Source of the DNA: a virus
DNA: 47,422 bases
UHGV virus genome: UHGV-0327568
Direction: 5' to 3' (one strand)
Position numbers and translations under genes: made by a program. Below are positions 6,804 to 34,862 of the stretch, piece by piece (position 1 is the first letter of the stretch; each line of letters begins with the position of its first letter). The notes beneath the pieces were generated by a model. It worked only from the letters and a program-made list of their open reading frames with translations. It was not told the origin of the DNA and made no database searches.

Positions 6804-6832
6804 TTGACGTAGATTGAGCGCCATCGTATAGT
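6804..6832 (+). promoter_or_regulatory. Sigma70-type promoter (TTGACG-17-TATAGT) for the rightward block
   Basis: -35 TTGACG at 6804-6809, 17-nt spacer, -10 TATAGT at 6827-6832, about 30 nt upstream of the 6863 gene. The -35 lies inside a copy of the conserved 14-mer. Confidence 0.55.
6805..6818 (-). repeat. Conserved element copy 1 (reverse orientation): TTGACGTAGATTGA
   Basis: Reverse complement of TCAATCTACGTCAA. One of six copies in divergent intergenic regions. Confidence 0.7.
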
Positions 6833-6862
6833 TACCACACCAACAACAAAGAGGTGATGAAA

Positions 6863-7048
6863 ATGACCAAAGCAATCTACACGCGCACTCAACTGGAACC
6901 AGAAATGGGCGCAGTGAAAGCGCAAAACTTTATGATGGCGCAGGCGATGCATGCATACAGCAACGGTAAGAGAGTCTGTCGCGTTTTTAGTGGCGAAGGC
7001 AAGAAGAGAGTGCTTGAGCAGGTCATAGTGTCATCTGGTGGAAACTAA
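6863..7048 (+). CDS. Hypothetical protein
   Basis: Start ATG 6863 (MTKAIY...) has an AAAGAGG RBS 8 nt upstream. The ORF-track start at 6854 is GTG. Confidence 0.45.
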   Translation: MTKAIYTRTQLEPEMGAVKAQNFMMAQAMHAYSNGKRVCRVFSGEGKKRVLEQVIVSSGGN

Positions 7049-7063
7049 ACCGGTTTAGCAACA

Positions 7064-7342
7064 ATGAATAAATTACTGGCAGTGGTTTTACTGGTTATCG
7101 CTAACGCAGCAAGCGCAGAGACAATATGGGTTACGAAGTATGCGCTGACCCGTGGCATTCAGAAGTGCGAAAGCGCACAGCTGTTTGCTGATGGACAGGT
7201 AGCTGTAGTTGGCGATGTTTACTTTAAACGTGGCGAATACTGGCTTGATGAGCAGCAGGCAAAAGAGCATGCAGAGACTTTGCGGCAACGCCGTGTATCT
7301 GCACTGATGCGTGAGCTTGAGCGTTTGCAGGCGGTTAAGTGA
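7064..7342 (+). CDS. Secreted hypothetical protein (Sec signal peptide)
   Basis: N-terminus MNKLLAVVLLVIANAASA/ETIW is a typical signal peptide. Confidence 0.55.
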   Translation: MNKLLAVVLLVIANAASAETIWVTKYALTRGIQKCESAQLFADGQVAVVGDVYFKRGEYWLDEQQAKEHAETLRQRRVSALMRELERLQAVK

Positions 7343-7348
7343 GGATTT

Positions 7349-7753
7349 ATGGATATCGAAATTAACGAAGTTCAGGAAATTATTAAAAATCTTGAGAGCG
7401 TTGGTGAAATCTCAATCAAAGAGGGAAAATACCTCAAGGTGGCAAAGCTGTGCGTGCAGCTGGCTGCGGAGAATATAGCACTGAAGGCGACGAGCGATGA
7501 TCGCCGCATGTTCATCATGAACGGGGTGCAGTTAGGTTATATCAAGGTGCCAACAGTTGAAACTGACCCGGCACTAGAAACCATTCGTATTGCTGTATCT
7601 CCGCAAGAAACGACCCCAGCCTCAGATCGCATCGTAGCCGGTATCAAGGCTGATGGGGTGGAGGAGTGGGTTTCCAGTAGGGGCGGCCGCTGGAATGGCA
7701 CGACCGAAGAGGCGCTTAAGTTCGCCAAGCAGCTGCGCGAGGGGGCCAAATGA
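7349..7753 (+). CDS. Hypothetical protein
   Basis: 134-aa ORF with an ATGA start/stop overlap to the downstream gene. Confidence 0.55.
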   Translation: MDIEINEVQEIIKNLESVGEISIKEGKYLKVAKLCVQLAAENIALKATSDDRRMFIMNGVQLGYIKVPTVETDPALETIRIAVSPQETTPASDRIVAGIKADGVEEWVSSRGGRWNGTTEEALKFAKQLREGAK

Positions 7754-8400
7754 GCAAGGCAAACCACAGCATCGCCAAAGCTCTGAAAATGGCATCACGA
7801 CAGACAGCATTCGAAAGCGCGCGCGAAGAAATATTGGCTGACCTGCAGCCTGCTGAACTGGCGCTGTCCGCAATGGACAGCGAGCCGGTGGCAGAAGTGG
7901 TTTCAATTTATGGTGACCCCGAAGATTTTGGGGAGCGAGAGATTAGACCGCTTGTAGGCATTCAGCAAATGCCATACGGTACGAAGCTATATCGTCACGC
8001 GCAGCCAGCACCGGTATATCCGGAGGAAATGACACCAGAGCAGGCATATGAAATAGGTGATTACCACGGAGACCCGGTAGACGTGTTTGCACGTGGAGCT
8101 AACTGGATGCGCCAGTATATCATCGACTCCACGTTAGCAGCTGGCCAGCAGTCACCCGTCATCGAGCCGGCCACCGTGCCGGGCAAATGGATTCCGGTAA
8201 GCGAGCGGATGCCATTGACCCCTTCTGCTGATTGCGAATACAGCGACATTGAAGTGAATGTATTTGATGGAGAACGCGTATTCACTGCTCACTACGCAAC
8301 TGGTTCGCAGCCTCAACCTTGGGGTTACTGGGTAGATACATACGCAAAGATAACCCACTGGCAACCTCTGCCATCAGCTCCGCAGGAGGATAAACCATGA
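7750..8400 (+). CDS. DUF551-like phage protein
   Basis: C-terminal KWIPVSERMP...ITHWQPLPSAP resembles the DUF551 signature common in enterobacterial phages. Confidence 0.5.
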   Translation: MSKANHSIAKALKMASRQTAFESAREEILADLQPAELALSAMDSEPVAEVVSIYGDPEDFGEREIRPLVGIQQMPYGTKLYRHAQPAPVYPEEMTPEQAYEIGDYHGDPVDVFARGANWMRQYIIDSTLAAGQQSPVIEPATVPGKWIPVSERMPLTPSADCEYSDIEVNVFDGERVFTAHYATGSQPQPWGYWVDTYAKITHWQPLPSAPQEDKP

Positions 8401-8492
8401 AACCATACATCATCCGCAGGCTAATTGCAGTATCACTGCTGGCATTCTGAATTGCCGTTGCACTGGCTATATACTTTATCGTGAGGTGAATC

Positions 8493-8651
8493 ATGTTGTG
8501 GAGCGACATTCAGGCGGCGTGCGAAGAGGCTGATTTTCTTTATGAGGAGACTGGTAAGCATCATGCAGTCATTCAGGTTGGCAGCATGATGATGGTGGTT
8601 GAGCATAACGGCATGCTTCGGCATATGTACTCAACGACGAGATATCAGTAA
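8493..8651 (+). CDS. Small hypothetical protein (52 aa)
   Basis: ATG 8493 preceded by GAGGTG. Its stop overlaps the next ATG (TAATG). Below the ORF-track size cut-off. Confidence 0.35.
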   Translation: MLWSDIQAACEEADFLYEETGKHHAVIQVGSMMMVVEHNGMLRHMYSTTRYQ

Positions 8652-8845
8652 TGCCGCAAAAATCAAAGCAGGAGGTATGGCAGAAGGCTAAGCTCGAAGA
8701 AGTTGACCAATTCATATCAGCAATCGCAAAAGTCTTTCCTGATGCTATTGAAGTGGTTCACGTTCAAAGCAATAACTGTAATGTTTGGTGTTATGCGAAA
8801 ACTGATGTACAATCATCTCATCAATCATCACCCACCACCCTTTAA
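8651..8845 (+). CDS. Hypothetical protein
   Basis: 64-aa ORF followed by a terminator. Confidence 0.45.
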   Translation: MPQKSKQEVWQKAKLEEVDQFISAIAKVFPDAIEVVHVQSNNCNVWCYAKTDVQSSHQSSPTTL

Positions 8846-8870
8846 CCCGCCTTGTGCGGGTTCTTTTTTA
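8843..8870 (+). terminator. Rho-independent terminator
   Basis: AACCCGC-cttgt-GCGGGTT followed by CTTTTTTA. Confidence 0.6.
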
Positions 8871-8916
8871 TCTGTGCTAAACTAACCATATCGAAATACG
8901 AGAAGACGAAAACGAC

Positions 8917-9360
8917 ATGGCAAATCCAAACCCTGTTATGAAATTTTCCTCTGAGTACCAGCCTGCTGGAAGAGGATTAAGCTACAGAAACAGGCTTATT
9001 GAAGCATTAAAGCGCTGCGGGCTTGGAGAAGAGGAGTTCCTTGACGCATTCATCAGGACGTCAATCAGGATGACGGAGGAAAACCCGACTCAGGGTGTGC
9101 AAATGTTGAAGGAGATATTCCTGCGCATCAGTCCTGTACAAAAAAGTATGGCACCTCCGGTTAATTTTAAATACCGCAAGGATGCCACTCCAGTTGAGCA
9201 GATAGAGGATGTCATTCAATCCGTTTCCAGTGGAGAGCTCCCAATCGATGTGGCGTCGCAGGTTGTATCTATGATTAAGGTTGGTCTTGACGTGAAAGAG
9301 TTAACCGAACTCGCCGCACGCCTTGAGCGACTGGAGAAATTACTGGAGCAGCAACAGTAA
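8917..9360 (+). CDS. Putative terminase small subunit
   Basis: 147-aa ORF immediately upstream of the large terminase, with a coiled-coil C-terminus. Assigned by position only. Confidence 0.4.
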   Translation: MANPNPVMKFSSEYQPAGRGLSYRNRLIEALKRCGLGEEEFLDAFIRTSIRMTEENPTQGVQMLKEIFLRISPVQKSMAPPVNFKYRKDATPVEQIEDVIQSVSSGELPIDVASQVVSMIKVGLDVKELTELAARLERLEKLLEQQQ

Positions 9361-9444
9361 CTGATTTATAATAATCAATGCGGCTAGGGGGCACCCGAAA
9401 AGCGACTCATCACCGCCTGCCGCATTCACTTCAATGATGCCCTG

Positions 9445-11979
9445 ATGAGGAATCTATATATGGCACGCAAAAGACTCTCAGCACCAGCAATTGAAAAACT
9501 CGAAGAGATTATTGGCGATGGCGTGATTGATGCGCCTGAATCTGCGGTGTTCGGTGTTGTTAATACAGATAAGCAGATTGTTCGCAAACTGAAAATGACG
9601 CAAAGCGGAGTTGATGACGTTAGCGACTCTGATATTGGCGTTGATCACCTGATACCAGAAAAGCTGGAAAAGCTACTTTACCCCAAGCGTAATAAGATTG
9701 TGTTTGGCGGGCGCGGATGCTTAGCCATCGGCACGATGGTGAGGATGTTTGATGGTAGCCTAAAACGCGTAGAGGATATCGTTGTTGGCGATAAGGTTAT
9801 GGGTCCAGACAGTAAACCACGAAATGTTTTAAACATCTGTCGGGGGTTTGATGACATGTATACGGTTCATCAAAAATATGCTGATGACTACACTGTCAAC
9901 TCAAGTCACATACTGTCATTACGAAAGATTCCATCTGCTATCAGTGACGAGACAAAAACACCGGATGGTAAAAGAATTTATCGTTATTACCCGAATGAAC
10001 CTGAAATACTGAATATTGGTGTTTCAGAATATTTGTCGCGCGCAACTTCCAAAAAGTTCCGCCATGTCTTTAAAGGGTGGCGAACAGGATGGGATTTTAA
10101 TGACCAAAGCGTCCCAGTTGACCCGTACTTTCTTGGTTTATGGTTAGGTGATGGTTCATCTCGTGGTGTTGAAGTGTGCACGCCTGATCCAGAGATAGTT
10201 GACTACATTCACAACGTGGCAAGCCAATACGGGATGCAGGTAAAGGTTCGCGACGATGATAGATGCCCTGTCTATGCGATAACTAATGGTCGAGCTGCTG
10301 GCATGGGGAAGAACACCAACCCGTTACTAACTAAAATGCAGCAGCTTGGGGTGATTAATAATAAACACATACCTGACTGCTATATCAAAAACAGCAGAGA
10401 GGTAAGACTTCAGATTCTGGCTGGGCTATTGGATACTGATTCGCATTATGACCAGAAAAAGAAAAGCTATTCTTTCACATCAATAAATAAAGAAATGGCC
10501 TTCTCTTTGATGGATGTGGCAAGATCGCTTGGCTTCAAGTCAAGCATAATCAAAAAGACTGATGTCACCTTTGAATATAAAGGTGAGAAAAGAATATACG
10601 AAAAGGACGTATGGGAGGTGTTCGTTAGTGGTGACCTTCATACAATCCCATGCCGAGTAAAAAGGAAGATAGCAGAGAAAACCAAGTCAACCCGTGGAAA
10701 GATGACTGAGGTGTCATTGTCTTATGTCGGGCATGGTGAATACGCTGGGTTCACTATTGATGGCGATCATCTTTTCCTGCTTGCTGATGGCACGGTTACA
10801 CACAACAGCGGAAAAACAAGGACAGTAACAACAATACTTACGGAGCGTGCACGCTTTAAGCCTGACAGGATAGCTTGTTTTCGTGAGATTCAGCAGTCCA
10901 TTGAAGATAGCTCATATCAGGAACTGAAGGACGAAATTGATCGCAAGGGAGAAACGAAAGAGTTTCGCGTCATCAACAACGAAATAACACACAAGGTAAC
11001 GAAAGCAAAGTTCCGCTTTAAAGGCCTGTATCGCAACCAGACGACCGTAAAAGGCTTCGCTGGCATTACAGTAGCTTGGGTCGAGGAGGCGGAAAACGTC
11101 AGCCAGACAAGCTGGGAAATCCTCACCCCAACAGTCCGCACTGAAGGGTCAGAGATATGGGTGACTTTCAACCCAAATAAAGAGCATGACCCGACGTGGA
11201 AAATATGGGTTGAGCCTTTTTATAATAAATTGCGCGAAAATGGCGGCATCTATGAGGATGATGAAAACCTGATTATGGAGTGTAATTACTCAGACAATCC
11301 GTGGTTCTGGGATACTCCGCTCCCAAGCCAAATGCAACGCATGAAAGAGACCGACTTCGACCGCTATCAATGGGTGTGGGGTGGGCGCTTTAATAAGCGT
11401 AATGATGAGCAGGTATTTGGCGGTAAGTGGCGCGTTGCTGATTTCGAGGTTAAGCCGGAATGGCATGGGCCTTACTTTGGCATCGACTTTGGATTCTCGC
11501 AGGACGCAACGGCGATGGTTGAGGTTTACATTGAGAAACTTCCTGATGACCGCCGCAACCTTTACGTCGCGCGCGAATACGGCCGTGTAGGCCTTGAGAT
11601 TACCGACACACCTACAGCGATGGAGCAATCATTCCCACTCTCCAGGAAGGCAAGATGGTATGGGGACTGCTCTCGGCCAGAAACAATCAGTCACATCAAA
11701 CGCGCAGGATTTGATATCCATCCATGCAATAAGTGGCCCGGGAGCGTGGAGGAGGGTGTAACCTGGCTCAGGGGTTGCGACAGCATCATCATTCATGACC
11801 GCTGCACACAGACTCAGGAAGAGTTCACTATGTACAGTTACAAGGTGGACAAGCTGACGGGTAACGTGCTCACAAATATTGTGGATGCGTGGAACCACTT
11901 CATTGACGCAATCAGATATGCATGCAACGATCACATCGTACAGCGTGGCTCTGGATGGATTAGAAGGAGCAGGAGATGA
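9445..11979 (+). CDS. Terminase large subunit interrupted by an intein (844-aa precursor; 481-aa extein)
   Basis: The extein junction FGGRG|C...THN|SGKT restores a Walker A (GRGSGKT). Downstream motifs are typical of TerL ATPase/nuclease regions. Confidence 0.8.
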   Translation: MRNLYMARKRLSAPAIEKLEEIIGDGVIDAPESAVFGVVNTDKQIVRKLKMTQSGVDDVSDSDIGVDHLIPEKLEKLLYPKRNKIVFGGRGCLAIGTMVRMFDGSLKRVEDIVVGDKVMGPDSKPRNVLNICRGFDDMYTVHQKYADDYTVNSSHILSLRKIPSAISDETKTPDGKRIYRYYPNEPEILNIGVSEYLSRATSKKFRHVFKGWRTGWDFNDQSVPVDPYFLGLWLGDGSSRGVEVCTPDPEIVDYIHNVASQYGMQVKVRDDDRCPVYAITNGRAAGMGKNTNPLLTKMQQLGVINNKHIPDCYIKNSREVRLQILAGLLDTDSHYDQKKKSYSFTSINKEMAFSLMDVARSLGFKSSIIKKTDVTFEYKGEKRIYEKDVWEVFVSGDLHTIPCRVKRKIAEKTKSTRGKMTEVSLSYVGHGEYAGFTIDGDHLFLLADGTVTHNSGKTRTVTTILTERARFKPDRIACFREIQQSIEDSSYQELKDEIDRKGETKEFRVINNEITHKVTKAKFRFKGLYRNQTTVKGFAGITVAWVEEAENVSQTSWEILTPTVRTEGSEIWVTFNPNKEHDPTWKIWVEPFYNKLRENGGIYEDDENLIMECNYSDNPWFWDTPLPSQMQRMKETDFDRYQWVWGGRFNKRNDEQVFGGKWRVADFEVKPEWHGPYFGIDFGFSQDATAMVEVYIEKLPDDRRNLYVAREYGRVGLEITDTPTAMEQSFPLSRKARWYGDCSRPETISHIKRAGFDIHPCNKWPGSVEEGVTWLRGCDSIIIHDRCTQTQEEFTMYSYKVDKLTGNVLTNIVDAWNHFIDAIRYACNDHIVQRGSGWIRRSRR
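9718..10806 (+). mobile_element. Intein with LAGLIDADG homing-endonuclease domain (363 aa), in the TerL P-loop
   Basis: Starts CLAIGTMV (block A) and ends GTVTHN followed by extein S. Internal FLGLWLGDGSS and LQILAGLLDTDSH are LAGLIDADG motifs. Confidence 0.75.
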
Positions 11980-12290: not shown

Positions 12291-12316
12291 AAGATTTCTC
12301 CGAGAGGTTTCATTTT

Positions 12317-12345
12317 AATCTACGCCATGCTAGAATCTACGTCAA
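12317..12345 (-). promoter_or_regulatory. Leftward sigma70-like promoter TTGACG-17-TAGATT
   Basis: The reverse complement of 12340-12345 is TTGACG and of 12317-12322 is TAGATT. The -35 comes from the conserved element and the -10 from a degenerate second copy (AATCTACGCC). Confidence 0.45.
12334..12345 (+). repeat. Conserved element copy 2: AATCTACGTCAA
   Basis: Exact core; divergent junction between 12290 (-) and 12382 (+). Confidence 0.7.
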
Positions 12346-12868: not shown

Positions 12869-13240
12869 TTATGCCTCAACCCAGTCGCCATCTTCGTTTT
12901 TAACGACCTCGACAAGGGTGTCGAACTGGCGTTTGCATTCTGCCGGGTCCTCGTCCCAGGTTGGCATTTCAGCCAGCCAGTTTTTATCCGTGTCGACTGA
13001 ACCGGTAAAGGGGTTCATCAGGAATTTTTCAGTAGTCATTTTGAGAGCCTCGTTAATTTCGCTTATGCGGGAATGAAGCACACACTGCACATCCGCACCT
13101 ATGGTTGATGGCAGTGCATACTTGCCTGTGACCCAGTGCCGGACTGTTCGGTCACTGACGGAAAGTCTTTCCGCCATCTCGGTGACGAAGTGATTCCCGA
13201 ACGCAGCCTTTCCAGCGGCAATAAAAGCTTCGATGTTCAT
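12869..13240 (-). CDS. Putative HTH DNA-binding protein
   Basis: Start MNIEAF at 13240. Segment MAERLSVSDRTVRHWVTGKYALP looks like a helix-turn-helix. Confidence 0.45.
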   Translation of the reverse strand: MNIEAFIAAGKAAFGNHFVTEMAERLSVSDRTVRHWVTGKYALPSTIGADVQCVLHSRISEINEALKMTTEKFLMNPFTGSVDTDKNWLAEMPTWDEDPAECKRQFDTLVEVVKNEDGDWVEA

Positions 13241-13241
13241 A

Positions 13242-13448
13242 TTACGCCTTTGCGAGATTCCAGGTTGATTTAAGGGCGGCAGCAAAGAATTCACAAGCTT
13301 TACGACCCGCATTTTTGGGAAGAGATGCGAAGCCTTTTGCTTCTGCCCATGCTGCGCGCATGATTGCTGCTTTGTCGAATTTGCCGTTGACGATCAGCGT
13401 TGCTTTAGTGGCTGCCTGGTTTTTTTTGAAAGAGTTGAGAATGCGCAT
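13242..13448 (-). CDS. Small hypothetical protein (68 aa)
   Basis: Its stop lies 1 nt from the start of the downstream HTH gene, giving a two-gene leftward unit. Confidence 0.4.
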   Translation of the reverse strand: MRILNSFKKNQAATKATLIVNGKFDKAAIMRAAWAEAKGFASLPKNAGRKACEFFAAALKSTWNLAKA

Positions 13449-13717
13449 TTGGAATCACCTTTGTGATATTGGCTGGGGCTTATCCCCTTGCCTATGTAAG
13501 TAATATACACATTCCGATAATCGGAAGCAAGGTTTTTATGAGATTTATATCGAAAGGTGGCAAAGATATTCGGTCTTGCGTGTCACGAATTGGGGGAGTG
13601 CAGCACGGCTGGATACCAAGTGGTGTCATGTGTGACCTTGCTTCTCATCGCTAACAAGGCCATACATGAAGAGGTTCCTTTTTCGCATCAATATCACGCA
13701 GGCATGACCATGCTATA

Positions 13718-13747
13718 ATCCCATCACTACCGATGGGATTTTTTATG
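13718..13747 (+). terminator. Hairpin plus T-run immediately upstream of the portal gene
   Basis: ATCCCATC-actacc-GATGGGAT followed by TTTTTTAT. A TATAAT (13714-13719) abuts it. Confidence 0.4.
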
Positions 13748-17282: not shown

Positions 17283-17569
17283 TTGTCACCCATCGTTGAC
17301 AGGCAGACCTCGCGAGAGATTGCGGCCACTTCTTTCGGCGTCTTATCTGTCATTTTGTATGCCCCATCAACGATAGCCTTGCTGAGTTGGTTAAATTCAG
17401 CGCTATACTGGCCTCCAGAAGAAACCATCAGCGCGATCTGCTTTGATACGCCAGCATCACGGGCTTCTGCCGCCGCTTCACCGAACTCACCAACTGCATT
17501 GCAAAACTCGCCAGCCGACGCACCAAATGAAGCCATTGCGAATACTGCTGCTGCGATTAATTTTTTCAT
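17279..17569 (-). CDS. Secreted small protein (signal peptide, 2 Cys)
   Basis: MKKLIAAAVFAMASFGASA/GE is a signal peptidase I-type signal. It is the first gene of the leftward cassette. Confidence 0.55.
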   Translation of the reverse strand: MKKLIAAAVFAMASFGASAGEFCNAVGEFGEAAAEARDAGVSKQIALMVSSGGQYSAEFNQLSKAIVDGAYKMTDKTPKEVAAISREVCLSTMGDK

Positions 17570-17614
17570 CTTGAATCCCCTTTGTTTGTGTAACTACATC
17601 ATCGCTTACGATTC

Positions 17615-17626
17615 AATCTACGTCAA
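17615..17626 (+). repeat. Conserved element copy 3: AATCTACGTCAA
   Basis: Within TTCAATCTACGTCAAGAC; divergent junction 17569 (-) / 17668 (+). Confidence 0.7.
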
Positions 17627-17634
17627 GACTATTG

Positions 17635-17643
17635 TGATAAAAT
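17635..17643 (+). promoter_or_regulatory. Extended -10 (TGATAAAAT) for the lysis cassette
   Basis: TGaTAAAAT lies 8 nt after the conserved element. The same arrangement recurs at 29623-29631. There is no good -35. Confidence 0.35.
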
Positions 17644-17667
17644 AATCTGCATCACCGGAGGTAACAA

Positions 17668-18105
17668 ATGAAACTATCAACGCGCGGAAAGAATTTAATT
17701 AAATCTCATGAAGGGCTAGTGCTTGCAGTTTACCCTGACCCGGCAACCGGAGGCGCTCCGTACACCGCCGGATACGGTCATGCCGGAAGCGACGTTAAGC
17801 CGGGAATGAAGGTCACGCAGGCAATGGCTGACGCATGGTTTGATAAAGACGTAGCGAAATTTGAAAGCGGCGTTTCGTCACTCATCACATCCCCAACAAC
17901 TCAGGGGCAGTTTGATGCAATGGTGTCGCTGGCCTACAACATTGGCCTTGGTAACTTTGGTAAATCAACTCTGCTGAAAAAGCATAATTCCTGCTGCTAC
18001 ACCTGCGCCGCCGACCAGTTCCGGGTATGGAATCGCGCCAATGGCAAGGTCATGAACGGACTCACAAAGCGCCGCGCAGCTGAACGTCAGGTCTACATGT
18101 CATGA
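17668..18105 (+). CDS. Endolysin (phage lysozyme, GH24-like)
   Basis: MKLSTRGKNLIKSHEGLVLAVYPDPATGGAPYTAGYGH... is a classic lysozyme N-terminus with the catalytic E in the EGL motif. Confidence 0.85.
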   Translation: MKLSTRGKNLIKSHEGLVLAVYPDPATGGAPYTAGYGHAGSDVKPGMKVTQAMADAWFDKDVAKFESGVSSLITSPTTQGQFDAMVSLAYNIGLGNFGKSTLLKKHNSCCYTCAADQFRVWNRANGKVMNGLTKRRAAERQVYMS

Positions 18106-19067: not shown

Positions 19068-19537
19068 TTCACCTCCCCATTCAGTTCATTAACAATTAAT
19101 GTTGCATAGCCAGCGATGTCTTTCCAGCTATCGTCGTATGTCGGGTCGCCATTCAGGATGCGACCAATTTTATGCTGAATCATGTCGAGCGCTTCCTTCT
19201 GGCTCGCCGTCAGGTTATTCCAGCCCTCCGCGTCATGCATAACTCGTTTCAGAGATCGCATGATTTCTGCGCCGTCTTTGAATTTGCCATAACGGCTGCC
19301 GCGCTCGGTGATGAGGGCTTCTGTTGAGATGATGCGCCAATTCAAGTCACCATCAGTTACTGGCTCACGATGGGCGATAACAATATCGCCAGCCTTTTCG
19401 ATATCCTTATCTCGCCCTGCATAATCCGCGCTGAGGTAGTGGATTTTGCCACTGGTTGCTGACTTCACAGCAAGAACGGCATCTTCATGACCATTAAAAT
19501 AATCAGCACTTCCTTTCAGGTATTTGTATTTCATCAC
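19064..19537 (-). CDS. Putative MazG-like nucleotide pyrophosphohydrolase-domain protein
   Basis: C-terminal ERGSRYGKF...LTASQKEALDMIQHKIGRILNGDPTYDDSWKDIAGYATL resembles MazG-like NTP-PPase modules in phages. Assignment is from memory. Confidence 0.4.
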   Translation of the reverse strand: MMKYKYLKGSADYFNGHEDAVLAVKSATSGKIHYLSADYAGRDKDIEKAGDIVIAHREPVTDGDLNWRIISTEALITERGSRYGKFKDGAEIMRSLKRVMHDAEGWNNLTASQKEALDMIQHKIGRILNGDPTYDDSWKDIAGYATLIVNELNGEVK

Positions 19538-19734
19538 TCCACCCTAAACGTAACTTTGTTTTTCTCATCCACGCTGAAGTGCTCACGCACAAACGCATAC
19601 ATTTCTTCAGCACTCCATTCACGCATTGCTACATAGCAGTGCGCGTAATATCTGACATCTCGCAGGCTTAACGGCTGGCGCTTAGCGATAATATCAGTCA
19701 GTACTTCCAGTGGTTCTTTGCGTTGTCTCGCCAT
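19534..19734 (-). CDS. Hypothetical protein
   Basis: 66 aa; first gene of the leftward cassette. Confidence 0.45.
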   Translation of the reverse strand: MARQRKEPLEVLTDIIAKRQPLSLRDVRYYAHCYVAMREWSAEEMYAFVREHFSVDEKNKVTFRVE

Positions 19735-19763
19735 TGTCGCTCTCCTGTGAAATCATCTTGACT

Positions 19764-19775
19764 AATCTACGTCAA
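19764..19775 (+). repeat. Conserved element copy 4: AATCTACGTCAA, embedded in a 9-bp inverted repeat
   Basis: TTGACTAAT(19758-19766)-ctacgtca-ATTAGTCAA(19775-19783) flanks the element. Confidence 0.7.
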
Positions 19776-19829
19776 TTAGTCAATACTAGGTGTTGTAGAT
19801 TATAACATCTTAATGCGAGTGATGTGGAT

Positions 19830-20345
19830 ATGAACTTTATTGACTTGTTTGTTTACGAAAACGGCAAGCTTTACTGGAAGGTTAAGCCGTCAAACAACGT
19901 AAAGGCTGGCGCAAGGATTGGGTGCCTGGAGCCAACGACAGGTTATCGAAAGGTAAAAGTAAAATACACCCAGACATATGAGCACAGGATTGTTTGGGAG
20001 CTATTTAACGGACCAATACCGGAAGACATGGAAATTGATCACATCAACCACATCAGAGATGACAACCGAATAGAGAATCTCAGGCTTGTTAACAGGAGAG
20101 AAAACACGAGAAACAGTTCAATCAGGAGCGACAACACCAGTGGTGTTGTTGGTGTTTGTTTTGATAAAAAGCGCGGCAAGTGGTACGCGCAAATAGTCTT
20201 AAACGGAACAAGGCTGCACTTAGGTCGCTTTTCAGAAAAGAGCGAAGCAATAAAGGCCAGACTTGAAGCTGAAATGAAATATGGTTTCCATGAAAACCAT
20301 GGAATCAATAGGCCAAAAAGAATGATAAAAGGTGGTGTGGAATGA
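19830..20345 (+). CDS. HNH homing endonuclease with AP2 domain
   Basis: IDHINHIRDDNRIENLR plus NTSGVVGVCFDKKRGKWYAQIVLNGTRLHLGRFSEKSEA. Start ATG 19830. The ORF track begins at GTG 19824. Confidence 0.8.
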   Translation: MNFIDLFVYENGKLYWKVKPSNNVKAGARIGCLEPTTGYRKVKVKYTQTYEHRIVWELFNGPIPEDMEIDHINHIRDDNRIENLRLVNRRENTRNSSIRSDNTSGVVGVCFDKKRGKWYAQIVLNGTRLHLGRFSEKSEAIKARLEAEMKYGFHENHGINRPKRMIKGGVE

Positions 20346-20557
20346 AAAAGTGGCAGGAGGTGACAGAAGTTCATAAGCGCGATTGCAGGGAGACTCTGCA
20401 AATGCTTAATGTGCCAGAGTCAATCATTAAATCTATCGAGCAGCGCATTGATCTGGCTGCTATGGAGGCCGCCCATGAAGCCGAGGAAGCGCAAATGTTG
20501 TCATGGATGGACAGAACTCTACCGGGCGTTTTACATCGTGGTAAGACTACCGATTGA
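20342..20557 (+). CDS. Hypothetical protein
   Basis: 71 aa; ATGA overlap with the HNH gene. Confidence 0.45.
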   Translation: MKKWQEVTEVHKRDCRETLQMLNVPESIIKSIEQRIDLAAMEAAHEAEEAQMLSWMDRTLPGVLHRGKTTD

Positions 20558-21525: not shown

Positions 21526-21803
21526 AGCATAAATCAGGAACCGTGCTGTTTGTCACCAACTGTGAACGCACGGCCAATAATCGCAGAGAGATGGGGTGGA
21601 TAGTGGAGGAAGTGGATGTGAGCAAACCAAAAAGCGCATTAATTAAAATTACATGGCATGACGACACGGTTAGCCAGTGGCATGCAGATTCATTCAGAGA
21701 GGGTGAGCACTCCATTGAAATGAATATTGGTGGATGCATTGTTTGCATCCCCTGGAGGTTATACAAAGATGGCGAAGTTAAACATTTGGATGTGGAGTCG
21801 TAA
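21513..21803 (+). CDS. Hypothetical protein
   Basis: 96 aa; overlaps the upstream gene end. Confidence 0.5.
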   Translation: MWAVKHKSGTVLFVTNCERTANNRREMGWIVEEVDVSKPKSALIKITWHDDTVSQWHADSFREGEHSIEMNIGGCIVCIPWRLYKDGEVKHLDVES

Positions 21804-22148
21804 ATGAAACTACAACTTAGCGAAATAATGGAAGCAACAGTCAGTGAACTGGAGGATATCGACATGACGCTTGCCTTTGAGATTGAGGCTATTGAGCGCC
21901 AGCTTTCCGGGAATCATGATGCGGGCAGAGTATGGAAGGAGAAGGCAATGAAAGCGCGCGACCATATGAAGCGCACCCGCGCGCTGGTTCGCACTCGCCT
22001 TGATAAGCTCTACTACGGCGAAGAAAGAATGTTGCACGGCGCCATTCTGGCTGAAATCCGCAAAACGATGCCTATCGGTAAGTTCATGGATGCCGTAAAC
22101 CGCGCAAAAATTAACTGCGGAATGTTAAATAAGAATAGTCCTCAATAA
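21804..22148 (+). CDS. Hypothetical protein
   Basis: 114 aa. Confidence 0.5.
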   Translation: MKLQLSEIMEATVSELEDIDMTLAFEIEAIERQLSGNHDAGRVWKEKAMKARDHMKRTRALVRTRLDKLYYGEERMLHGAILAEIRKTMPIGKFMDAVNRAKINCGMLNKNSPQ

Positions 22149-22291: not shown

Positions 22292-22300
22292 TGTTATAAT
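22292..22300 (+). promoter_or_regulatory. Extended -10 (TGtTATAAT) upstream of the head genes
   Basis: GTGTTATAAT lies 30 nt upstream of the 22331 start (RBS GGAGAAAGG). Confidence 0.35.
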
Positions 22301-25340: not shown

Positions 25341-25535
25341 ATGGCTAAATATGAAGTAATCGCCAGCGGAATCTTCGTCAAGGATAAAGATGGCCGTCTG
25401 CGCGAGCTTGCCATTGGCGACGTGATTGACGAATCGACTCCGCACATTGAGTCAAAACTTCGCCCGGTTAGTGAGAAAATTCTGGAAGTTGCAACTCCGC
25501 AAGAATCGCAGCCAAAGACGAAGAAAACCAAGTAA
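25341..25535 (+). CDS. Small hypothetical protein
   Basis: 64 aa with its own terminator. Confidence 0.45.
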   Translation: MAKYEVIASGIFVKDKDGRLRELAIGDVIDESTPHIESKLRPVSEKILEVATPQESQPKTKKTK

Positions 25536-27215: not shown

Positions 27216-27388
27216 CACTTCACCTTTATCATGTGTTGTTTTGCAACCTTCAGGCATTCATCGAAAATCTTGCCATTCTTTTCACTCTGGTTGCTCCTGT
27301 AGTGGGTAATTGCGGCCTCTATAGCCGCGTTGTCGATGCCTGGCAGTTTTTCGCGCAGGTTTTTCTCTATGAATTGCTCGGGGTTCAT
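27215..27388 (-). CDS. Small hypothetical protein (57 aa)
   Basis: MNPEQFIEKNLREKLPGIDNAAIEAAITHY... TGATG overlap with the clamp-like gene and RBS GAGGTCAG. Confidence 0.35.
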   Translation of the reverse strand: MNPEQFIEKNLREKLPGIDNAAIEAAITHYRSNQSEKNGKIFDECLKVAKQHMIKVK

Positions 27389-28320
27389 TAAACTGACCTC
27401 ATGAATGCTTTAATGAATTCCGCTGCGACTTGCGGGACGATGGCATTGCCATAACCGCGCAGTCGTCCCACCCTGGCGGGAATCCCATTAGCCAGCGGGA
27501 ATGTGCCGGGCTCAACTGGCCGGAACTTTCCATCCCGGCATCCGAGCCAGTCAGCATCTGACCAGAATCCGTGATGCGGATTGGTTGCGTTATCGCTGCA
27601 AAATCCTGCAGACGCTGTTGTATCTTGCTCCCGTCCTTCCGATACATAGTTAGTGCGTTTTCTGGTGCAGCAGCCCTGTCGTTGCTGTTCGCAGTTGGGC
27701 TGGGCAATGCGGCCAGCTTCGCCTGTCCGGGTAGCTTCAGGCATATCTTTCTGTCCTTCCCGCTGTAGCAATGCGTGCTGCCAGTTGTGTCGTTCACTAT
27801 TGGTGTCGCCCAGTTGCATCGCGCCGAAGAAAAGTCTGTCGCGTTTGTGTGGTGCACCGACGCTGCACGCTGGCAATACTGCCGACCCGCAGGCGTAGCC
27901 TTTGTCTTCCAGGTTAAGGAATACAAAATCGAGCCAGTGCTTTCCAATTGCTGCCGCAACCTGCTCTCCAAACAGCAATTGAGGCTTGCACTCTCTGATG
28001 AGCCTGAGAAATGCTGGGGCAAGGTGCCGCTCGTCGTCAAATCCGAGAGACTTACCGGCAACGCTAAACGGCTGGCAAGGTGGTGATCCTGTCCAGAGCT
28101 GAGTGCTTGCTGGTATTCCAGCCAACTGGAGTGCAAGGGGCCACCCTCCGATTCCGGCAAAGAAGTGACACTGTGTAAATCCTTCCAGGTCTGAAGGGGT
28201 GACTTCGGTGATTGATCGTTCATCGACATATCCGTAAGGAATTAGTTTATTGTTAATTAACTCTCGCAGCCACGCCGCTGCACTTGCGTCCCATTCGTTG
28301 TAGTAGCTGGCTGTCATCAC
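27388..28320 (-). CDS. DNA (cytosine-5)-methyltransferase
   Basis: Motif I FFAGIGG, motif IV SPPCQPFS, ENV-like FGEQV, motif VIII HKRDRLFF and motif X GNAIVPQVAAEF. A long Q/R/C-rich variable region lies between motifs VIII and X. Confidence 0.85.
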   Translation of the reverse strand: MMTASYYNEWDASAAAWLRELINNKLIPYGYVDERSITEVTPSDLEGFTQCHFFAGIGGWPLALQLAGIPASTQLWTGSPPCQPFSVAGKSLGFDDERHLAPAFLRLIRECKPQLLFGEQVAAAIGKHWLDFVFLNLEDKGYACGSAVLPACSVGAPHKRDRLFFGAMQLGDTNSERHNWQHALLQREGQKDMPEATRTGEAGRIAQPNCEQQRQGCCTRKRTNYVSEGREQDTTASAGFCSDNATNPHHGFWSDADWLGCRDGKFRPVEPGTFPLANGIPARVGRLRGYGNAIVPQVAAEFIKAFMRSV

Positions 28321-29132
28321 AGCTTCTCCAGAATAGCCAGAACTTCACTCAACTCAGCGGAAGGAAGGCGCAAAAATTCTTCTGTCTCCTGTGCCACATG
28401 ACCCTCAGCGACAACCATATGGTCTGCTTCTTTCAGCAACTGAATCAGGCGGTCAATCGGCTTAACTTTTTTGGCCTTGAGCGTTTTAGCCGTCACCTTA
28501 TCTTTGCCCTGCGCTTTCGCTTCCTCAACGGCGGCATCAATAACGTTAACGGCATCATCGCCATGCTCACGTGCGACCGCAACGGCGTTGGCATAGCTGA
28601 TTTGGCCTGCATTGATACGCTGCTTGATGGCATCAGGTACATCACCAAGTGACAGGTGCATTTGCACATCAGACACAGAGCGCCCGACCTTCTTGGCGAT
28701 TTCTTCATTCGTCCACCCGAACCCTTTGAGGCGCACATAAGCCTTTGCACGCTCAAGCGGGTCGAGTTGCTTGCCCTGACTTGAAGACACCATGAAGGCG
28801 ATTTTATCCGCCTCATCGCCGGTGAAGTCTTTGCACTCAATTCGCGCAATTGGCACGCCGCGCTCAATGGCACGCAGTGCTCCAAGGTAACGATGCTGGC
28901 CGTCAAGAATCTTGATGCGCTTTCCGTCGGCATCAGGAATAACAGTTAACGCCGGGATTGGCTGTCCTGATTCCCAACACTGCGCGAAGTATTCAACGTG
29001 CTGCTCATCGGCTTCGCGGATGTTGTACCCCGGCTCAAGGTAAAGCTGGTCGACAGGGACCTGATAACCTTTGTTGACCACGATTCCGCCGCGAGTTTCT
29101 TTGTCTGAGTAAATTTTTCCGAGAGATGTCAT
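28317..29132 (-). CDS. ParB-like nuclease-domain protein
   Basis: KILDGQHRYLGALRA is the ParB/Srx-type DGxHR motif. Start chosen at ATG 29132 (GAGGGA RBS). The ORF track extends to 29168. Confidence 0.65.
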   Translation of the reverse strand: MTSLGKIYSDKETRGGIVVNKGYQVPVDQLYLEPGYNIREADEQHVEYFAQCWESGQPIPALTVIPDADGKRIKILDGQHRYLGALRAIERGVPIARIECKDFTGDEADKIAFMVSSSQGKQLDPLERAKAYVRLKGFGWTNEEIAKKVGRSVSDVQMHLSLGDVPDAIKQRINAGQISYANAVAVAREHGDDAVNVIDAAVEEAKAQGKDKVTAKTLKAKKVKPIDRLIQLLKEADHMVVAEGHVAQETEEFLRLPSAELSEVLAILEKL

Positions 29133-29256: not shown

Positions 29257-29564
29257 TGGGGTTCTCCGAGTGCTTTTGCGATTGCGGCATAGGCCTTGCT
29301 CAAGGCAGTGGCATTCCTTTTTGTTGGCGTAGTGAAGACTACAAGCATCTCCAGAGCCTCCAGCAATTCCGGCGCAGCGGCCATCATTCGTTGGTTGGCA
29401 ACTTGAACCTCAACTTCAGGGTCAAACTCAACCCAGCCGACAGGAATAATCACTCCATAAGACTGGTCGTCATCTGTTGATTTTGGCCCTATTGCCCTGC
29501 TGTTATCTCCAAACCACGGCCCCGGCGTACCTTTGAATTCATTCATCCTCATCACCTCTAACAT
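29253..29564 (-). CDS. Hypothetical protein
   Basis: 103 aa; first gene of the leftward cassette. Confidence 0.45.
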   Translation of the reverse strand: MLEVMRMNEFKGTPGPWFGDNSRAIGPKSTDDDQSYGVIIPVGWVEFDPEVEVQVANQRMMAAAPELLEALEMLVVFTTPTKRNATALSKAYAAIAKALGEPQ

Positions 29565-29586
29565 TTATTGTTGTTTCTACGTCATC

Positions 29587-29615
29587 ACTATAGCGACACC
29601 CTCAATCTACGTCAA
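29587..29615 (-). promoter_or_regulatory. Leftward sigma70 promoter TTGACG-17-TATAGT
   Basis: Reverse complement of 29610-29615 is TTGACG, spacer 17, reverse complement of 29587-29592 is TATAGT. The hexamers are identical to the rightward promoter at 6804-6832. Confidence 0.55.
29604..29615 (+). repeat. Conserved element copy 5: AATCTACGTCAA (partial copy TCTACGTCA at 29575-29583)
   Basis: Within CTCAATCTACGTCAACAC; divergent junction 29564 (-) / 29777 (+). Confidence 0.7.
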
Positions 29616-29622
29616 CACTTTA

Positions 29623-29631
29623 TGATAAAAT
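29623..29631 (+). promoter_or_regulatory. Extended -10 (TGATAAAAT)
   Basis: Same nonamer and same spacing from the conserved element as at 17635-17643. Confidence 0.35.
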
Positions 29632-31774: not shown

Positions 31775-31777
31775 ATT

Positions 31778-31854: not shown

Positions 31855-31856
31855 GT

Positions 31857-31995
31857 TGTGTTGTGGTGAGTGGAGTCGAACCACCTTCCATCAGTGCGCT
31901 GCTGATTGGGTTACGCGCATCCTGCGGTTACTTATCCGGAATCTTCACCGCAAAACTATTCCCTAGCTCGCCGTTGAGCTTCACCACAACGATAA
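31857..31995 (-). other. tRNA-like remnant / candidate third tRNA (no clean cloverleaf)
   Basis: Minus-strand GGTGG-TTCGACT-CCACT is a canonical T-arm 8 nt from tRNA-Arg. The matching acceptor TGTGGTG...CACCACA lies 127 nt apart, or 91 nt apart with one mismatch. No CCA. Confidence 0.3.
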
Positions 31996-32723
31996 ACCAA
32001 CTCACTTAACCACATGAATCGTACAACTCAAAGGTGGTAAATTGATTTACCTGTTGTGTGCCGGGATTCCACCGGCTCCCATCTGTTTTTTAAGACACTC
32101 ATATATCGTCTGGTCTTGTTGTGGTGGCCGGTGCTGTTCTCCGGCGTTGCCTACCCTTAGTGAATCGGTTTTTCCGCTCGAGTCCGGAAAGGCATGGGAA
32201 ACCGCCCACCCTAAACCATCGCATCAGCCTGCGCATTCACCACAACGGAAAGAGCACTCATTGCATCGACCAAACAGAATCGTCTTTTCGATTATGACTC
32301 TACTTTAACGGTTGCTCTGCTGCGCTAACCCAATGCTCTTACCTGTTGTGTGCCCATTATTAATCACACCGGGCCAGTGCGCCGAATTCATTGACAAGGA
32401 GTCGGAAGACCTTGCTGGTGTTTAGCCGTTAGGCTACTGCCAGATACATTTCTTCGTTTGCATTTATCTTTGTGGTCAGTTTCTAAAAACCCGCAAAGTC
32501 GCCACGAAAACTATCGGAAAGAGCGCTTTAAGCCTTACCACATCTACTTTTGCGCATAAGTCGTCACCTGTGCGGGGATGTCCCCTGAAGCTACTTAACA
32601 GCGCTCTTACCTGATAGTTGCTGGCGTCTCAAATTAACAGTAAATCCGAATGCCACCTGTCAATCTTCCTGCATTCTGCGACCAGCAAGTTAAATCTACA
32701 CCACCAATCAAAAGCTGTCAACA

Positions 32724-32732
32724 TGATATAAT
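32724..32732 (+). promoter_or_regulatory. Extended -10 (TGaTATAAT) upstream of the major tail gene
   Basis: CATGATATAAT lies 35 nt before ATG 32767 (RBS AGAGAGG). Confidence 0.4.
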
Positions 32733-33522: not shown

Positions 33523-33548
33523 AAAAACCCCCGAAAGGGGGTTTATTC
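33522..33548. terminator. Bidirectional rho-independent terminator
   Basis: AAACCCCC-gaaa-GGGGGTTT. Confidence 0.65.
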
Positions 33549-33743
33549 TGTTCTGACATATCTAAAAAACAACTTATCTTGAGATATCATCTTTAATTTG
33601 CCATCTCGCTCCATTCTTCTTGCTATCCTCCGCATGTTACCATGCGAAGATTTAAATTTATGGACATAAATCCAGCCGTAATATTCAATCATTTCGTTCA
33701 CATGGCTTTCTTTTTTTATTTTATGGATGGCTCTCATTATCAC
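33543..33743 (-). CDS. Hypothetical protein
   Basis: 66 aa, basic. Confidence 0.4.
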   Translation of the reverse strand: MIMRAIHKIKKESHVNEMIEYYGWIYVHKFKSSHGNMRRIARRMERDGKLKMISQDKLFFRYVRTE

Positions 33744-33910
33744 GCCTTCCTCGTCTTATTTTTAATCGCCCACAAAATCAGATTAGCCATAAACTCAGAT
33801 CGCTTTAAGTGAATGGCAATCGCGTAATTAATGTCAATGCACTGTACGGCATAGGCGGATATGACATCAGCATCTGTTTGGTCAACCACCATTGGTTTTC
33901 TCCCGCAACA

Positions 33911-34162
33911 TCATACACACTCATCAAGCTGACGGCGCAACATGCATAGCGCACCGCGTGGCATTGCCTGGCGACTCACACCGTCGAAAATCTTCCGGTT
34001 GAGGTAATTGGTCACTCGCGGCCTGATAGCCTGCCAGCACGCCTTAATGCTGCCATTTACCGGGCGGCGCTCGAGCATGGCGAACTTTGCAGATAGTTCC
34101 AGCGTCACCAGTGCATCAAGGTATTGCTCGCAGGCATAGCGATTTTCGTTATCCATCATCAT
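33911..34162 (-). CDS. Hypothetical protein
   Basis: 83 aa; ATGA overlap with the upstream HNH gene. Confidence 0.4.
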   Translation of the reverse strand: MMMDNENRYACEQYLDALVTLELSAKFAMLERRPVNGSIKACWQAIRPRVTNYLNRKIFDGVSRQAMPRGALCMLRRQLDECV

Positions 34163-34644
34163 TTACCATGGTTCTCATGAAAATCATACTTAACCTCCGC
34201 CTTTCTCCTTGCTTCAGCGGCCATATTTAAGTCAGAAAACAATCCAAGATGAATCTTTACGCCATCAACTTTTATGTTTGAGGCCCATTTTTTATGTTGT
34301 TTATCCCATGAAACACCAGTAACACCTGATTTGTTTGTCACCCTGAACTTCATGTTGTGATTATTCTCTTTTGGAGTGACAAGCCTGAGGTTATCTATCT
34401 TATCGTTTGTTTTTTTGTGGTCTATATGATCAATCTGCATTCCGTCAGGAATTTTCCCATTATGCATTTCCCAGATGATGCGATGAACAAGATACTTGAC
34501 GCCATAGATTCCAACAATCTTATATCCATTGCCTCCTACCGCCTTCACCTCGCTTCCGATTTTCACTCTGTTTGAGGTTCTTATCTTCCAGTAAATAGCC
34601 CCATCGCAATAATAAAAAATATCTGACCAATCATTTATCTTCAT
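34159..34644 (-). CDS. HNH homing endonuclease with AP2 domain
   Basis: IDHIDHKKTNDKIDNLR plus KSGVTGVSWDKQHKKWASNIKVDGVKIHLGLFSDLNMAAEA. Third paralog of this type. Confidence 0.8.
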   Translation of the reverse strand: MKINDWSDIFYYCDGAIYWKIRTSNRVKIGSEVKAVGGNGYKIVGIYGVKYLVHRIIWEMHNGKIPDGMQIDHIDHKKTNDKIDNLRLVTPKENNHNMKFRVTNKSGVTGVSWDKQHKKWASNIKVDGVKIHLGLFSDLNMAAEARRKAEVKYDFHENHGK

Positions 34645-34765
34645 CGAATGTCACCCCTACCATTGCAAGTAATTTTTTCGCCATCAACTCGGCCTCATCA
34701 TAGGTAAACCCGCAATCAACGTACAGGTCAATGTAAAATCTCAAATCAGCATCAGTCTCGTTCAT
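34631..34765 (-). CDS. Small hypothetical protein (44 aa)
   Basis: MNETDADLRFYIDLYVDCGFTYDEAELMAKKLL... First gene of the leftward cassette. Overlaps the HNH start. Confidence 0.3.
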   Translation of the reverse strand: MNETDADLRFYIDLYVDCGFTYDEAELMAKKLLAMVGVTFDEDK

Positions 34766-34785
34766 ATGTCAAACCCTTAATCACC

Positions 34786-34797
34786 TTATGCTTTCAA
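34786..34797 (+). repeat. Conserved element copy 6: AATCTACGTCAG (partial copy TTACGTCA at 34826-34833)
   Basis: Within TTCAATCTACGTCAGTC; divergent junction 34765 (-) / 34863 (+). Confidence 0.65.
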
Positions 34798-34815
34798 TCT
34801 ACGTCAGTCTTGCGT

Positions 34816-34824
34816 CTCCTGTCA
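34816..34824 (+). promoter_or_regulatory. Extended -10 (TGgTATAAT) upstream of the tail assembly genes
   Basis: AATGGTATAAT lies 39 nt before ATG 34863. Confidence 0.35.
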
Positions 34825-34862
34825 ATGGTATAATTACGTCATTATGAAAACAGGATTTAGAC

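Follow-up and report, generated by a model that had tools for sequence, protein, structure and literature searches.

A conserved asymmetric box as a candidate two-register core of early promoters in a Roufvirus-like Klebsiella phage

Introduction

The early promoters of phage T4 carry a consensus that extends beyond the sigma70 elements (PMC2988021). Such a lineage-specific early promoter consensus of lytic coliphages is the closest known kind to the element described here, a short box that recurs in the viral DNA UHGV-0327568. As judged from its sequence, this stretch of 47,422 base pairs (bp), called the window here, represents the complete genome, in circularly permuted form, of a lytic, Roufvirus-like siphophage of Klebsiella. 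We consider it rather likely that the box is the conserved core of early and accessory promoters that the host sigma70 RNA polymerase reads in two registers. In register I, the TTGACG half would be taken as the -35, with a separate -10 located 17 bp downstream. In register II, the TAGATT half would be taken as the -10, with a -35 located 17 to 18 bp upstream. Like the T4 early promoters and T7 A1 to A3, the box promoters come in many copies, combine a -35 and a -10 at 17-bp spacing with a wider consensus, and precede genes that look early. Unlike those promoters, one fused block of 12 to 14 bp appears to give the -35 or the -10 according to context. The box also has no TGn or UP-element pattern, and its non-consensus -10, TAGATT, is kept invariant. 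Such two-register conservation of one short block is unusual.

Other promoter classes resemble the locus in part. The T4 middle promoters, which depend on MotA and AsiA, have a box at -30 in place of the -35, whereas register II keeps TTGACA and its phage-specific part abuts the -10. The window's rightward late promoters do belong to the extended -10 class (TGnTAnAAT, no -35). The box itself does not, because three bases separate its TG, at -17/-16, from TAGATT.

Several operator systems are also similar. The stoperators of Cluster A mycobacteriophages are bound by a monomeric two-domain reader (PMC9283540). Like stoperators of the L5 gp71 type, the box is asymmetric, measures 13 to 14 bp, occurs in about 10 or more copies in short intergenic gaps, and is oriented with transcription; in both systems, a copy overlaps a promoter -35. 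However, the box is found at the predicted core promoters of unit starts and not inside operons, where stoperators block elongation. The Cluster A phages are temperate and their reader is the immunity repressor, whereas the relatives here are strictly lytic (PMC11769527). We therefore do not class the box as a stoperator, because the phages are lytic, no such repressor was found, and the sites coincide with core promoters. The lambda PR and PL operators likewise show conservation over and between the -35 and -10 beyond what the polymerase needs, with several sites per promoter. Those operators are 17-bp pseudo-palindromes bound by dimers, whereas the box is asymmetric and spread over about 10 promoters. 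As in the RK2 KorB system, promoter-associated sites are dispersed, and one protein of the phage carries HTH_ParB and KorB domains. However, the KorB operator OB on RK2 is a 13-bp palindrome, unlike the asymmetric box, and 12 boxes persist in a relative, VLCpiS13d, that has no ParB-like gene.

Results

The box is concentrated in intergenic DNA

The box consensus is TTGAYG-TAGATT-(G/C)A, 12 to 14 bp long and asymmetric. Allowing at most one mismatch to AATCTACGTCAA, we found 8 matches against 0.17 expected, and 0 of 100 shuffles reached 8. The exact matches lie at 6804-6815 (minus strand) and at 12334-12345, 17615-17626, 19764-19775, and 29604-29615 (plus strand). Those with one mismatch lie at 308-319, 34796-34807 (which reads ...CAG), and 25370-25381. 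The degenerate core TGRYGTAGATT matched 10 times, with 0.04 matches expected in the genome. GTAGATT and TGACGTAGA are the most enriched words of intergenic DNA; 10 of 13 copies of the former and 7 of 7 copies of the latter are intergenic, and intergenic DNA makes up 8.4% of the genome. The motif is thus not equally frequent in coding DNA, a point raised in a first-pass annotation of this DNA. All 11 box copies point toward the downstream gene on the same strand. The sole near-copy within a gene, AATCTTCGTCAA at 25370-25381 (plus strand), is in a small open reading frame (25341-25535). It is kept in pYD38-A, has no promoter partners, and is probably a coding coincidence.

The first-pass annotation had listed six copies, four of them with exact coordinates. 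The copy placed at 6805-6818 really occupies 6804-6817, and the one placed at 34786-34797 is a mismatched copy at 34796-34807. The copies at 306-319, 3362-3375, 19790-19803, and 32691-32704 had been missed. Two of its partial copies were recovered, at 29575-29583 and at 12317-12324, the latter as part of a full copy at 12315-12328; its third, at 34826-34833, is the extended -10 TGGTATAAT. Nor does every copy lie at a divergent junction, as had been stated. The copy at 306-319 is between two leftward genes, and the copy at 6804 is predicted to fire rightward.

Rfam gave no match at the box copies. We rejected an RNA-level element because of this result and because the register I box lies upstream of the predicted start. 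An informal by-eye comparison with the consensus sequences of IHF, DnaA, CRP, sigmaE, and sigma28 gave no convincing match. Our literature search found no paper that mentions the box sequence or analyses promoters in Roufvirus, Skatevirus, or Deseoctovirus.

Box copies fall into two sigma70 registers

We counted two hexamers as a sigma70 pair when 16 to 18 bp lay between them, the -35 shared at least 4 of its 6 bases with TTGACA, and the -10 had A2 and T6. Such pairs are present at 8 of the 11 copies, namely those at 6804, 12345/12328, 17626, 29615, 319, 32704, and 34807. Register I copies begin with a perfect TTGACG, which would act as the -35; no other -35 is found upstream, and the -10 is exactly 17 bp downstream. 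These -10 elements are TATAGT (6827-6832 and 29592-29587), GATGAT (17603-17598), and the TAGATT of a second copy (12322-12317). In register II, the first hexamer is degenerate (TTGATG, ATGGCG, GTGGTG, or CTGACG), and a -35 is found 17 to 18 bp upstream of TAGATT. These -35 elements are TTGATG at 336-331, TTGACG at 12345-12340, and TTGACA at 32721-32716 and 34825-34820.

The state of the first hexamer covaries with the position of its partner. We counted each orthologous junction of the window and four relatives once. A downstream -10 is present in 5 of 6 groups with a perfect TTGACG versus 0 of 9 others (Fisher p=0.002), and an upstream -35 is present in 6 of 9 groups with a degenerate half versus 0 of 6 others (p=0.028). 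The operative -10 ends 22 to 34 nucleotides (nt) from the start codon, except at the transfer RNA (tRNA) unit and the 3362 copy. The covariation, the 17- to 18-bp spacing, and the 22- to 34-nt leader together form a sigma70 promoter signature. Because TAGATT is positioned as the -10 in at least four copies (306-319, 12315-12328, 32691-32704, and 34794-34807), the box is not merely a -35 hexamer. The first-pass proposal that the box supplies a TTGACG -35 thus holds for the copies at 6804, 12345, 17626, and 29615, but not for those at least four copies. The hexamer pairs that it named, TTGACG-17-TATAGT at 6804-6832 (plus) and 29615-29587 (minus) and TTGACG-17-TAGATT at 12345-12317 (minus), are all present.

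The register I promoter at 6804-6832 (plus strand) has the box TTGACGTAGATTGA (6804-6817) as its -35, followed after 17 nt by TATAGT at 6827-6832. Its predicted start is at about 6839, and it would serve a rightward operon of small genes (DUF7540 and others; 6854-9360). In the register I promoter at 17590-17626 (minus strand), the box (17626-17613) is followed after 17 nt by GATGAT (17603-17598). An auxiliary box-like GATGATGTAGTTAC (17603-17590, minus) covers the -10 and the predicted start of this promoter, which would serve the leftward cassette 17569-16142. The register I promoter at 29573-29615 (minus strand) is built from a box at 29615-29602, 17 nt, and TATAGT at 29592-29587, with an auxiliary copy, GATGACGTAGAAAC (29586-29573, minus), on the predicted start at about 29580. 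It would serve the p97/ParB-like/C5-methylase/RusA cassette (29546-26679). A tandem pair occupies 12315-12345 (minus strand). Here, TTGACG (12345-12340) of TTGACGTAGATTCT is the -35 for TAGATT (12322-12317) of ATGGCGTAGATTAA (12315-12328), and this TAGATT lies 26 nt upstream of the p96 ATG (12290).

The box TTGATGTAGATTGA at 306-319 (minus strand) is in register II, with TAGATT at 313-308, TTGATG at 336-331, and a 17-nt spacer. It lies 26 nt upstream of the exoVIII ATG (281), and a weak copy, ATGACGTGGTTTGA (316-329, minus), overlaps it. The register II promoter at 32691-32721 (minus strand) consists of TTGACA (32721-32716), 17 nt, and TAGATT within GTGGTGTAGATTTA (32704-32691). It would serve about 830 nt of non-coding DNA and then the genes for tRNA-Arg and tRNA-Met (31854-31698). 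The register II promoter at 34794-34825 (minus strand) consists of TTGACA (34825-34820), 18 nt, and TAGATT within CTGACGTAGATTGA (34807-34794). It lies 30 nt upstream of the p42 ATG (34765) and would serve the cassette 34765-33543. A TTACGTCAT fragment is found at 34834-34842.

The remaining copies are orphans. The box ATGATGTAGATTCA at 3362-3375 (minus strand), which has no -35 or -10 partner, overlaps the first primase codons and faces an HNH gene (2671-3240). A canonical TTGACA-17-TAATAT promoter is located nearby, at 3327-3299. A back-to-back pair at 19762-19803, TTGACGTAGATTAG (19775-19762, minus) and GTGTTGTAGATTAT (19790-19803, plus), is 14 nt apart and has no sigma70 partner hexamer. 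On one side of the pair is p66 (19734-19534), which encodes a winged-helix protein, and on the other is the HNH/Lar/MarR-like operon (19824-22148); the same layout recurs in Escherichia phage C1 and Salmonella phage KFS-SE2. The plus-strand copy shares bases with an extended -10, TGTTATAAT (19807-19799, minus). The inverted repeat with 9-bp arms reported earlier around the fourth copy, TTGACTAAT/ATTAGTCAA, was found at 19758-19783.

Both halves of the box are conserved in related phages

The nearest relatives, with about 90 to 97% identity over shared parts, are the Vibrio phage pYD38-A (genus Roufvirus), the Klebsiella phages ZX4, BUCT541, and KpV2811, and the Aeromonas phage pIS4-A. The box is at the same junctions in ZX4 and pYD38-A. 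It is also found in C1 (Deseoctovirus) and KFS-SE2 (Skatevirus), whose coat proteins are 73 to 80% identical to that of the window. A related box, RGGTAGATTGA, precedes early-type genes in Yersinia phage P400, whose coat protein is 53% identical. The motif therefore recurs in related phages, at the same junctions in three genera and in related form in the P400 lineage. An exact 14-mer scan of IMG/VR gave mostly chance matches in unrelated contigs and was informative only for relatives of about 46 to 48 kb. The junction at 17520-17680 is 87 to 97% identical to that of pYD38-A, and the flanking genes are 37 to 65% identical.

To survey the ParB junction, we anchored an IMG/VR scan on the leader and not on the box, which yielded 53 distinct upstream sequences. 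In their alignment, TTGACGTAGATT is near-invariant, with 3 single-sequence changes. The 9 spacer bases that follow vary freely, and TATAGT is invariant. After TATAGT come 2 to 3 free bases and then TGAYGTAGAAAC, a box-like sequence that lies on the predicted start. The junction at 34807 retains TTGACA and CTGACGTAGATTG, whereas the intervening spacer and the leader are variable. For register II, we searched 838 kb of relatives for TTGAC[AG]-N16-18-TAGATT, leaving the six bases before TAGATT unconditioned. Of the 56 different matches, which come from about six promoter families whose spacers are unrelated, 53 carry nTGRYG. The register I spacer holds the box part TAGATTGA, which sigma70 does not use. 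The half unused by sigma70 is thus under constraint in both registers.

The leaders downstream of the promoters also differ by register. The register I promoters share a CA-rich leader (6833-6853, 17570-17597, and 29547-29572) with a strong ribosome-binding site at its end (ACAACAA...AGAGGTGATG). A different leader, TCATCGAAAC, is common to many register II promoters of relatives and of P400. These register-specific leaders may be conserved 5' untranslated region modules.

Late operons are preceded by predicted extended -10 promoters

For a gene map, we located on the window the proteins that are annotated in ZX4 and pYD38-A. In this map, short leftward cassettes break up the rightward structural and lysis operons. 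A separate rightward class, TGnTAnAAT without a -35, is found at 8 plus-strand sites before these late operons, 25 to 46 nt and once 146 nt from the first gene. Genome-wide, 9 of 14 TGnTAnAAT sites are intergenic and 12 of 14 are on the plus strand; a binomial estimate for the intergenic share is about 3e-7. No box is near TGCTATAAT (13711-13719, 37 nt upstream of the portal gene), TGTTATAAT (22292-22300, 31 nt upstream of the coat/prohead gene), or TGATACAAT (42650-42658, at the end of a tail gene and 33 nt upstream of the tail-fibre gene). The portal site overlaps a terminator-like hairpin and T-run (13717-13740) directly before the portal start.

The other plus-strand sites are at junctions with leftward units. 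TGCTAGAAT (12328-12336), upstream of p79 (12382), overlaps the opposite-strand box copies. TGATAAAAT occurs at two of these sites. The one at 17635-17643 precedes the endolysin gene by 25 nt, and the one at 29623-29631 precedes a membrane/head-tail operon by 146 nt; their distances to the divergent box -35 are 8 and 7 nt, respectively. The major tail gene begins 35 nt downstream of TGATATAAT (32724-32732), which is separated by 2 nt from the divergent tRNA promoter's -35. The TGGTATAAT site (34826-34834) lies 29 nt upstream of the DUF6246/tape-measure operon and abuts the divergent TTGACA. The same split is seen in C1 and KFS-SE2, with extended -10 sites before structural and lysis operons and the box before early-type operons.

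The gap between box and late promoter is not fixed. It measures 8 nt at 17635, 7 nt at 29623, and about 18 nt at 34826, and the two overlap at 12328. At four junctions, the extended -10 is 0 to 8 bp from the divergent -35, whether or not that -35 belongs to the box. TGn/-10 promoters need no -35 (PMC2988021). Because some late promoters have no box, the gap varies, and TGn promoters are independent of a -35, the box is not indicated as an activator site for late promoters. The first-pass annotation had proposed activator-dependent late promoters with the box in the -35 region, citing TGATAAAAT at identical spacing; both TGATAAAAT sites exist, but they lie 8 and 7 nt from the box. Between predicted divergent start sites, the distance is 52 to 59 bp, which suggests that two polymerases compete for a junction. 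They are probably unable to bind it at the same time.

Candidate second readers of the box

Auxiliary box-like copies sit on the -10 or start of register I promoters (29586-29573 and 17603-17590), and C1 and KFS-SE2 have an inverted ATCTACATCAA after CATAGT. Given the conserved unused half, these auxiliary copies, and the orphan pair, an added repressing DNA-binding protein is the simplest addition to sigma70 reading. A phage-encoded repressor probably also binds the box as an operator. The earlier description of a promoter/operator module agrees with our results in that the box is promoter-associated, phage-specific, and found at compact two-way junctions; its operator part is plausible.

A speculative candidate for such a reader is p66, a single winged-helix protein of 66 amino acids (aa) encoded at 19534-19734 (minus strand). 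It is clade-restricted and is present in every genome examined, with 207 records that include P400 and all reduced seszw mutants listed.

The three helix-turn-helix (HTH) candidates of the first-pass annotation did not hold up. The viable Skatevirus mutant seszw_300L.2 (36.6 kb) has lost the MarR-like gene (21055-21525) and keeps 9 boxes. The burst size of this mutant is down from 140 to 37 (PMC9825161). The MarR-like protein has a generic tandem winged-helix fold. The AP2 protein (6137-6394) and the 147-aa protein HTH147 (12869-13312) are absent from other box-bearing genera. We also rejected the ParB/KorB-like protein (27388-29132, minus strand), which has HTH_ParB and KorB domains and whose gene adjoins that of a C5 cytosine methylase, because the natural relative VLCpiS13d lacks the gene and keeps its boxes. 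No sigma-like, AsiA-like, or MotA-like protein was found among about 40 proteins scanned with Pfam and PHROGs, where many small proteins are functionally unassigned. A promoter for a phage RNA polymerase was rejected as well, because the 844-aa open reading frame is the large terminase with an insert and no RNA polymerase is annotated in the relatives.

Two of these loci have further features. The ParB-like/C5-methylase cassette is wholly replaced by unrelated genes in VLCpiS13d. The AP2 protein (minus strand), a stand-alone domain of 85 aa, is related to the modules with which HNH homing endonucleases bind DNA. Its gene opens the replicative-helicase operon, and the protein is 100% identical in ZX4 and pYD38-A.

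Other features of the genome

The exoVIII gene crosses the right end of the window and continues at 281-2. A strictly lytic lifestyle has been shown for a close relative (PMC11769527), and no integrase or immunity repressor is present among the annotated or scanned genes. The large terminase (9445-11979, plus strand) has 844 aa, as in pYD38-A, versus 474 aa in ZX4. Only ZX4 residues 88 to 474 align, with 61% identity, and the size difference may reflect an insertion, e.g., an intein. An Rfam match to the int-alpA RNA (9377-9440, plus strand; 42.6 bits, gathering threshold 35.8) lies between the large terminase gene and that of the putative small terminase (8917-9360).

A 459-nt AT-rich non-coding stretch (6395-6853) separates the operon of the AP2 protein and helicase from the 6804 box promoter. 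It has runs of (TAG/TAA)n and repeats of palindromes of the GGTAAATTTTACC type, along with many weak promoter-like matches and two strong hairpins that resemble terminators (6495-6515, plus; 6748-6726, minus). This stretch may be a control or origin region. The roughly 830 nt between the 32721 promoter and the tRNA genes (31855-32690, minus strand) have no open reading frame, homologue, or Rfam family, and contain two internal repeat families about 256 to 292 nt apart (TTCACCACAACG... and TTACCTGTTGTGTGCC). The sequence directly downstream of the 32721 promoter varies widely among relatives.

Three free-standing HNH endonuclease genes adjoin promoter junctions, at 2671-3240 (minus), 19824-20345 (plus), and 34159-34623 (minus). 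The gene at 19824 lies between the 19790 box copy and p71. It looks like a recent mobile insertion, because ZX4 and pYD38-A have no gene at that position.

Discussion

The covariation of the box halves with their partner hexamers argues that the host sigma70 polymerase reads the box in two registers. In this scenario, the structural and lysis operons would be fired from separate, -35-independent extended -10 promoters. The box promoters would compete with the abutting late promoters at the divergent junctions, and a phage protein bound at the box would shut the box promoters down. From the genes that they precede, we infer that the box promoters act early. More doubtful is the proposal that p66 or another small early protein occupies about 10 early promoters, thereby ending early transcription and unblocking the abutting late promoters.

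Several observations weigh against sigma70 reading as the full account. For three copies (19762-19775, 19790-19803, and 3362-3375), neither register offers a partner hexamer. As -10 elements, TAGATT agrees with TATAAT in just 4 of 6 bases, and GATGAT is weak. The TG of register II is at -17/-16 and not at the extended -10 position of -15/-14. If sigma70 were the sole reader, the conservation of the unused half would be unexplained, and no reader protein was identified among the candidates examined (p66, MarR-like, ParB/KorB-like, AP2, and HTH147). The promoter calls come from sequence alone, and our literature search gave no transcript data for the phage or its relatives.

Alternatively, the box could be primarily an operator. 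A monomeric phage protein, with p66 as the best candidate, would read the asymmetric TGRYGTAGATTGA over the core promoters, switching off the early and accessory units and freeing the overlapping extended -10 late promoters. We regard this idea as possible, and it is compatible with sigma70 reading. It would account for the unused half being conserved in both registers, for the auxiliary copies on the -10 or start of register I promoters here and in C1 and KFS-SE2, and for the back-to-back orphan pair beside the p66 gene. The phyletic range of p66 equals that of the box, and there is a precedent for a monomer on an asymmetric site of 13 to 14 bp (PMC9283540). However, shared descent can explain the co-occurrence of p66 and the box, the Foldseek match of p66 is not significant, and the other candidates (MarR-like, ParB/KorB-like, AP2, and HTH147) fail. 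The register covariation also shows that the box halves act as sigma70 hexamers. That covariation, at exactly 17 to 18 bp and with strong partners, is the pattern that an unmodified sigma70 holoenzyme requires. It thereby makes it unlikely that the box is a self-sufficient, -35-less promoter used by a polymerase with a phage-encoded or phage-modified specificity factor, as in T4 late or middle transcription. Here, an extended -10-type contact would suffice and the sigma70-like partner hexamers would be secondary. The orphan copies without a -35 that still lie 22 to 29 nt before gene starts would fit such a promoter, as would the strict conservation of about 13 bp around TAGATT and the P400 box RGGTAGATTGA, which is constant while TTG-type hexamers lie 8, 12, or 17 nt off. 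However, no sigma-like, AsiA-like, or MotA-like factor turned up in the roughly 40 proteins, and the served genes look early (replication, recombination, and anti-restriction) and so need the unmodified host polymerase.

It is very unlikely that the box serves rightward late promoters as an activator site in their -35 region and doubles as a leftward -35. The box does take the -35 position for the TGATAAAAT promoters at 17635 and 29623, and this arrangement is conserved in other genera. However, the TGnTAnAAT promoters at 13711, 22292, and 42650 are boxless; at 32724 and 34826, a plain TTGACA adjoins and the box is 20 to 30 bp farther off; and the copies at 306-319 and 3362-3375 have no divergent partner. 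TGn/-10 promoters also need neither a -35 nor an activator (PMC2988021). Less probable still, the box could be a short homology patch for cassette exchange between related phages, that is, a linker at mosaic boundaries. The junctions are high-identity islands between divergent cassettes, cassette content varies among close relatives, and the phage encodes exoVIII, an annealase-like AAA_24/Sak4-like protein, and SSB. However, 12 to 14 bp is very short for homologous recombination, and the conserved island of about 150 bp extends beyond the box alone. The fixed orientation, exact hexamer spacing, and register covariation are promoter properties.

Reading of the box by sigma70 in two registers yields a testable transcription map, with about 10 box promoters for early and accessory genes and about 8 extended -10 promoters for structural and lysis genes. 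The map covers lytic siphophages of Klebsiella, Salmonella, and E. coli that are under development for therapy and detection; Roufvirus, Skatevirus, and Deseoctovirus have been placed in a proposed family, 'Skateviridae', in one paper. Because the cassettes are self-contained units of promoter, genes, and terminator, the map should aid annotation, genome reduction, and payload insertion. If a reader protein exists, it and the box would be a compact new regulator-operator pair. The map also points to a simple, experimentally accessible early-to-late switch. If the proposed shutoff is true, a strictly lytic siphophage family would have a one-protein early-to-late switch, with no dedicated late activator or sigma factor.

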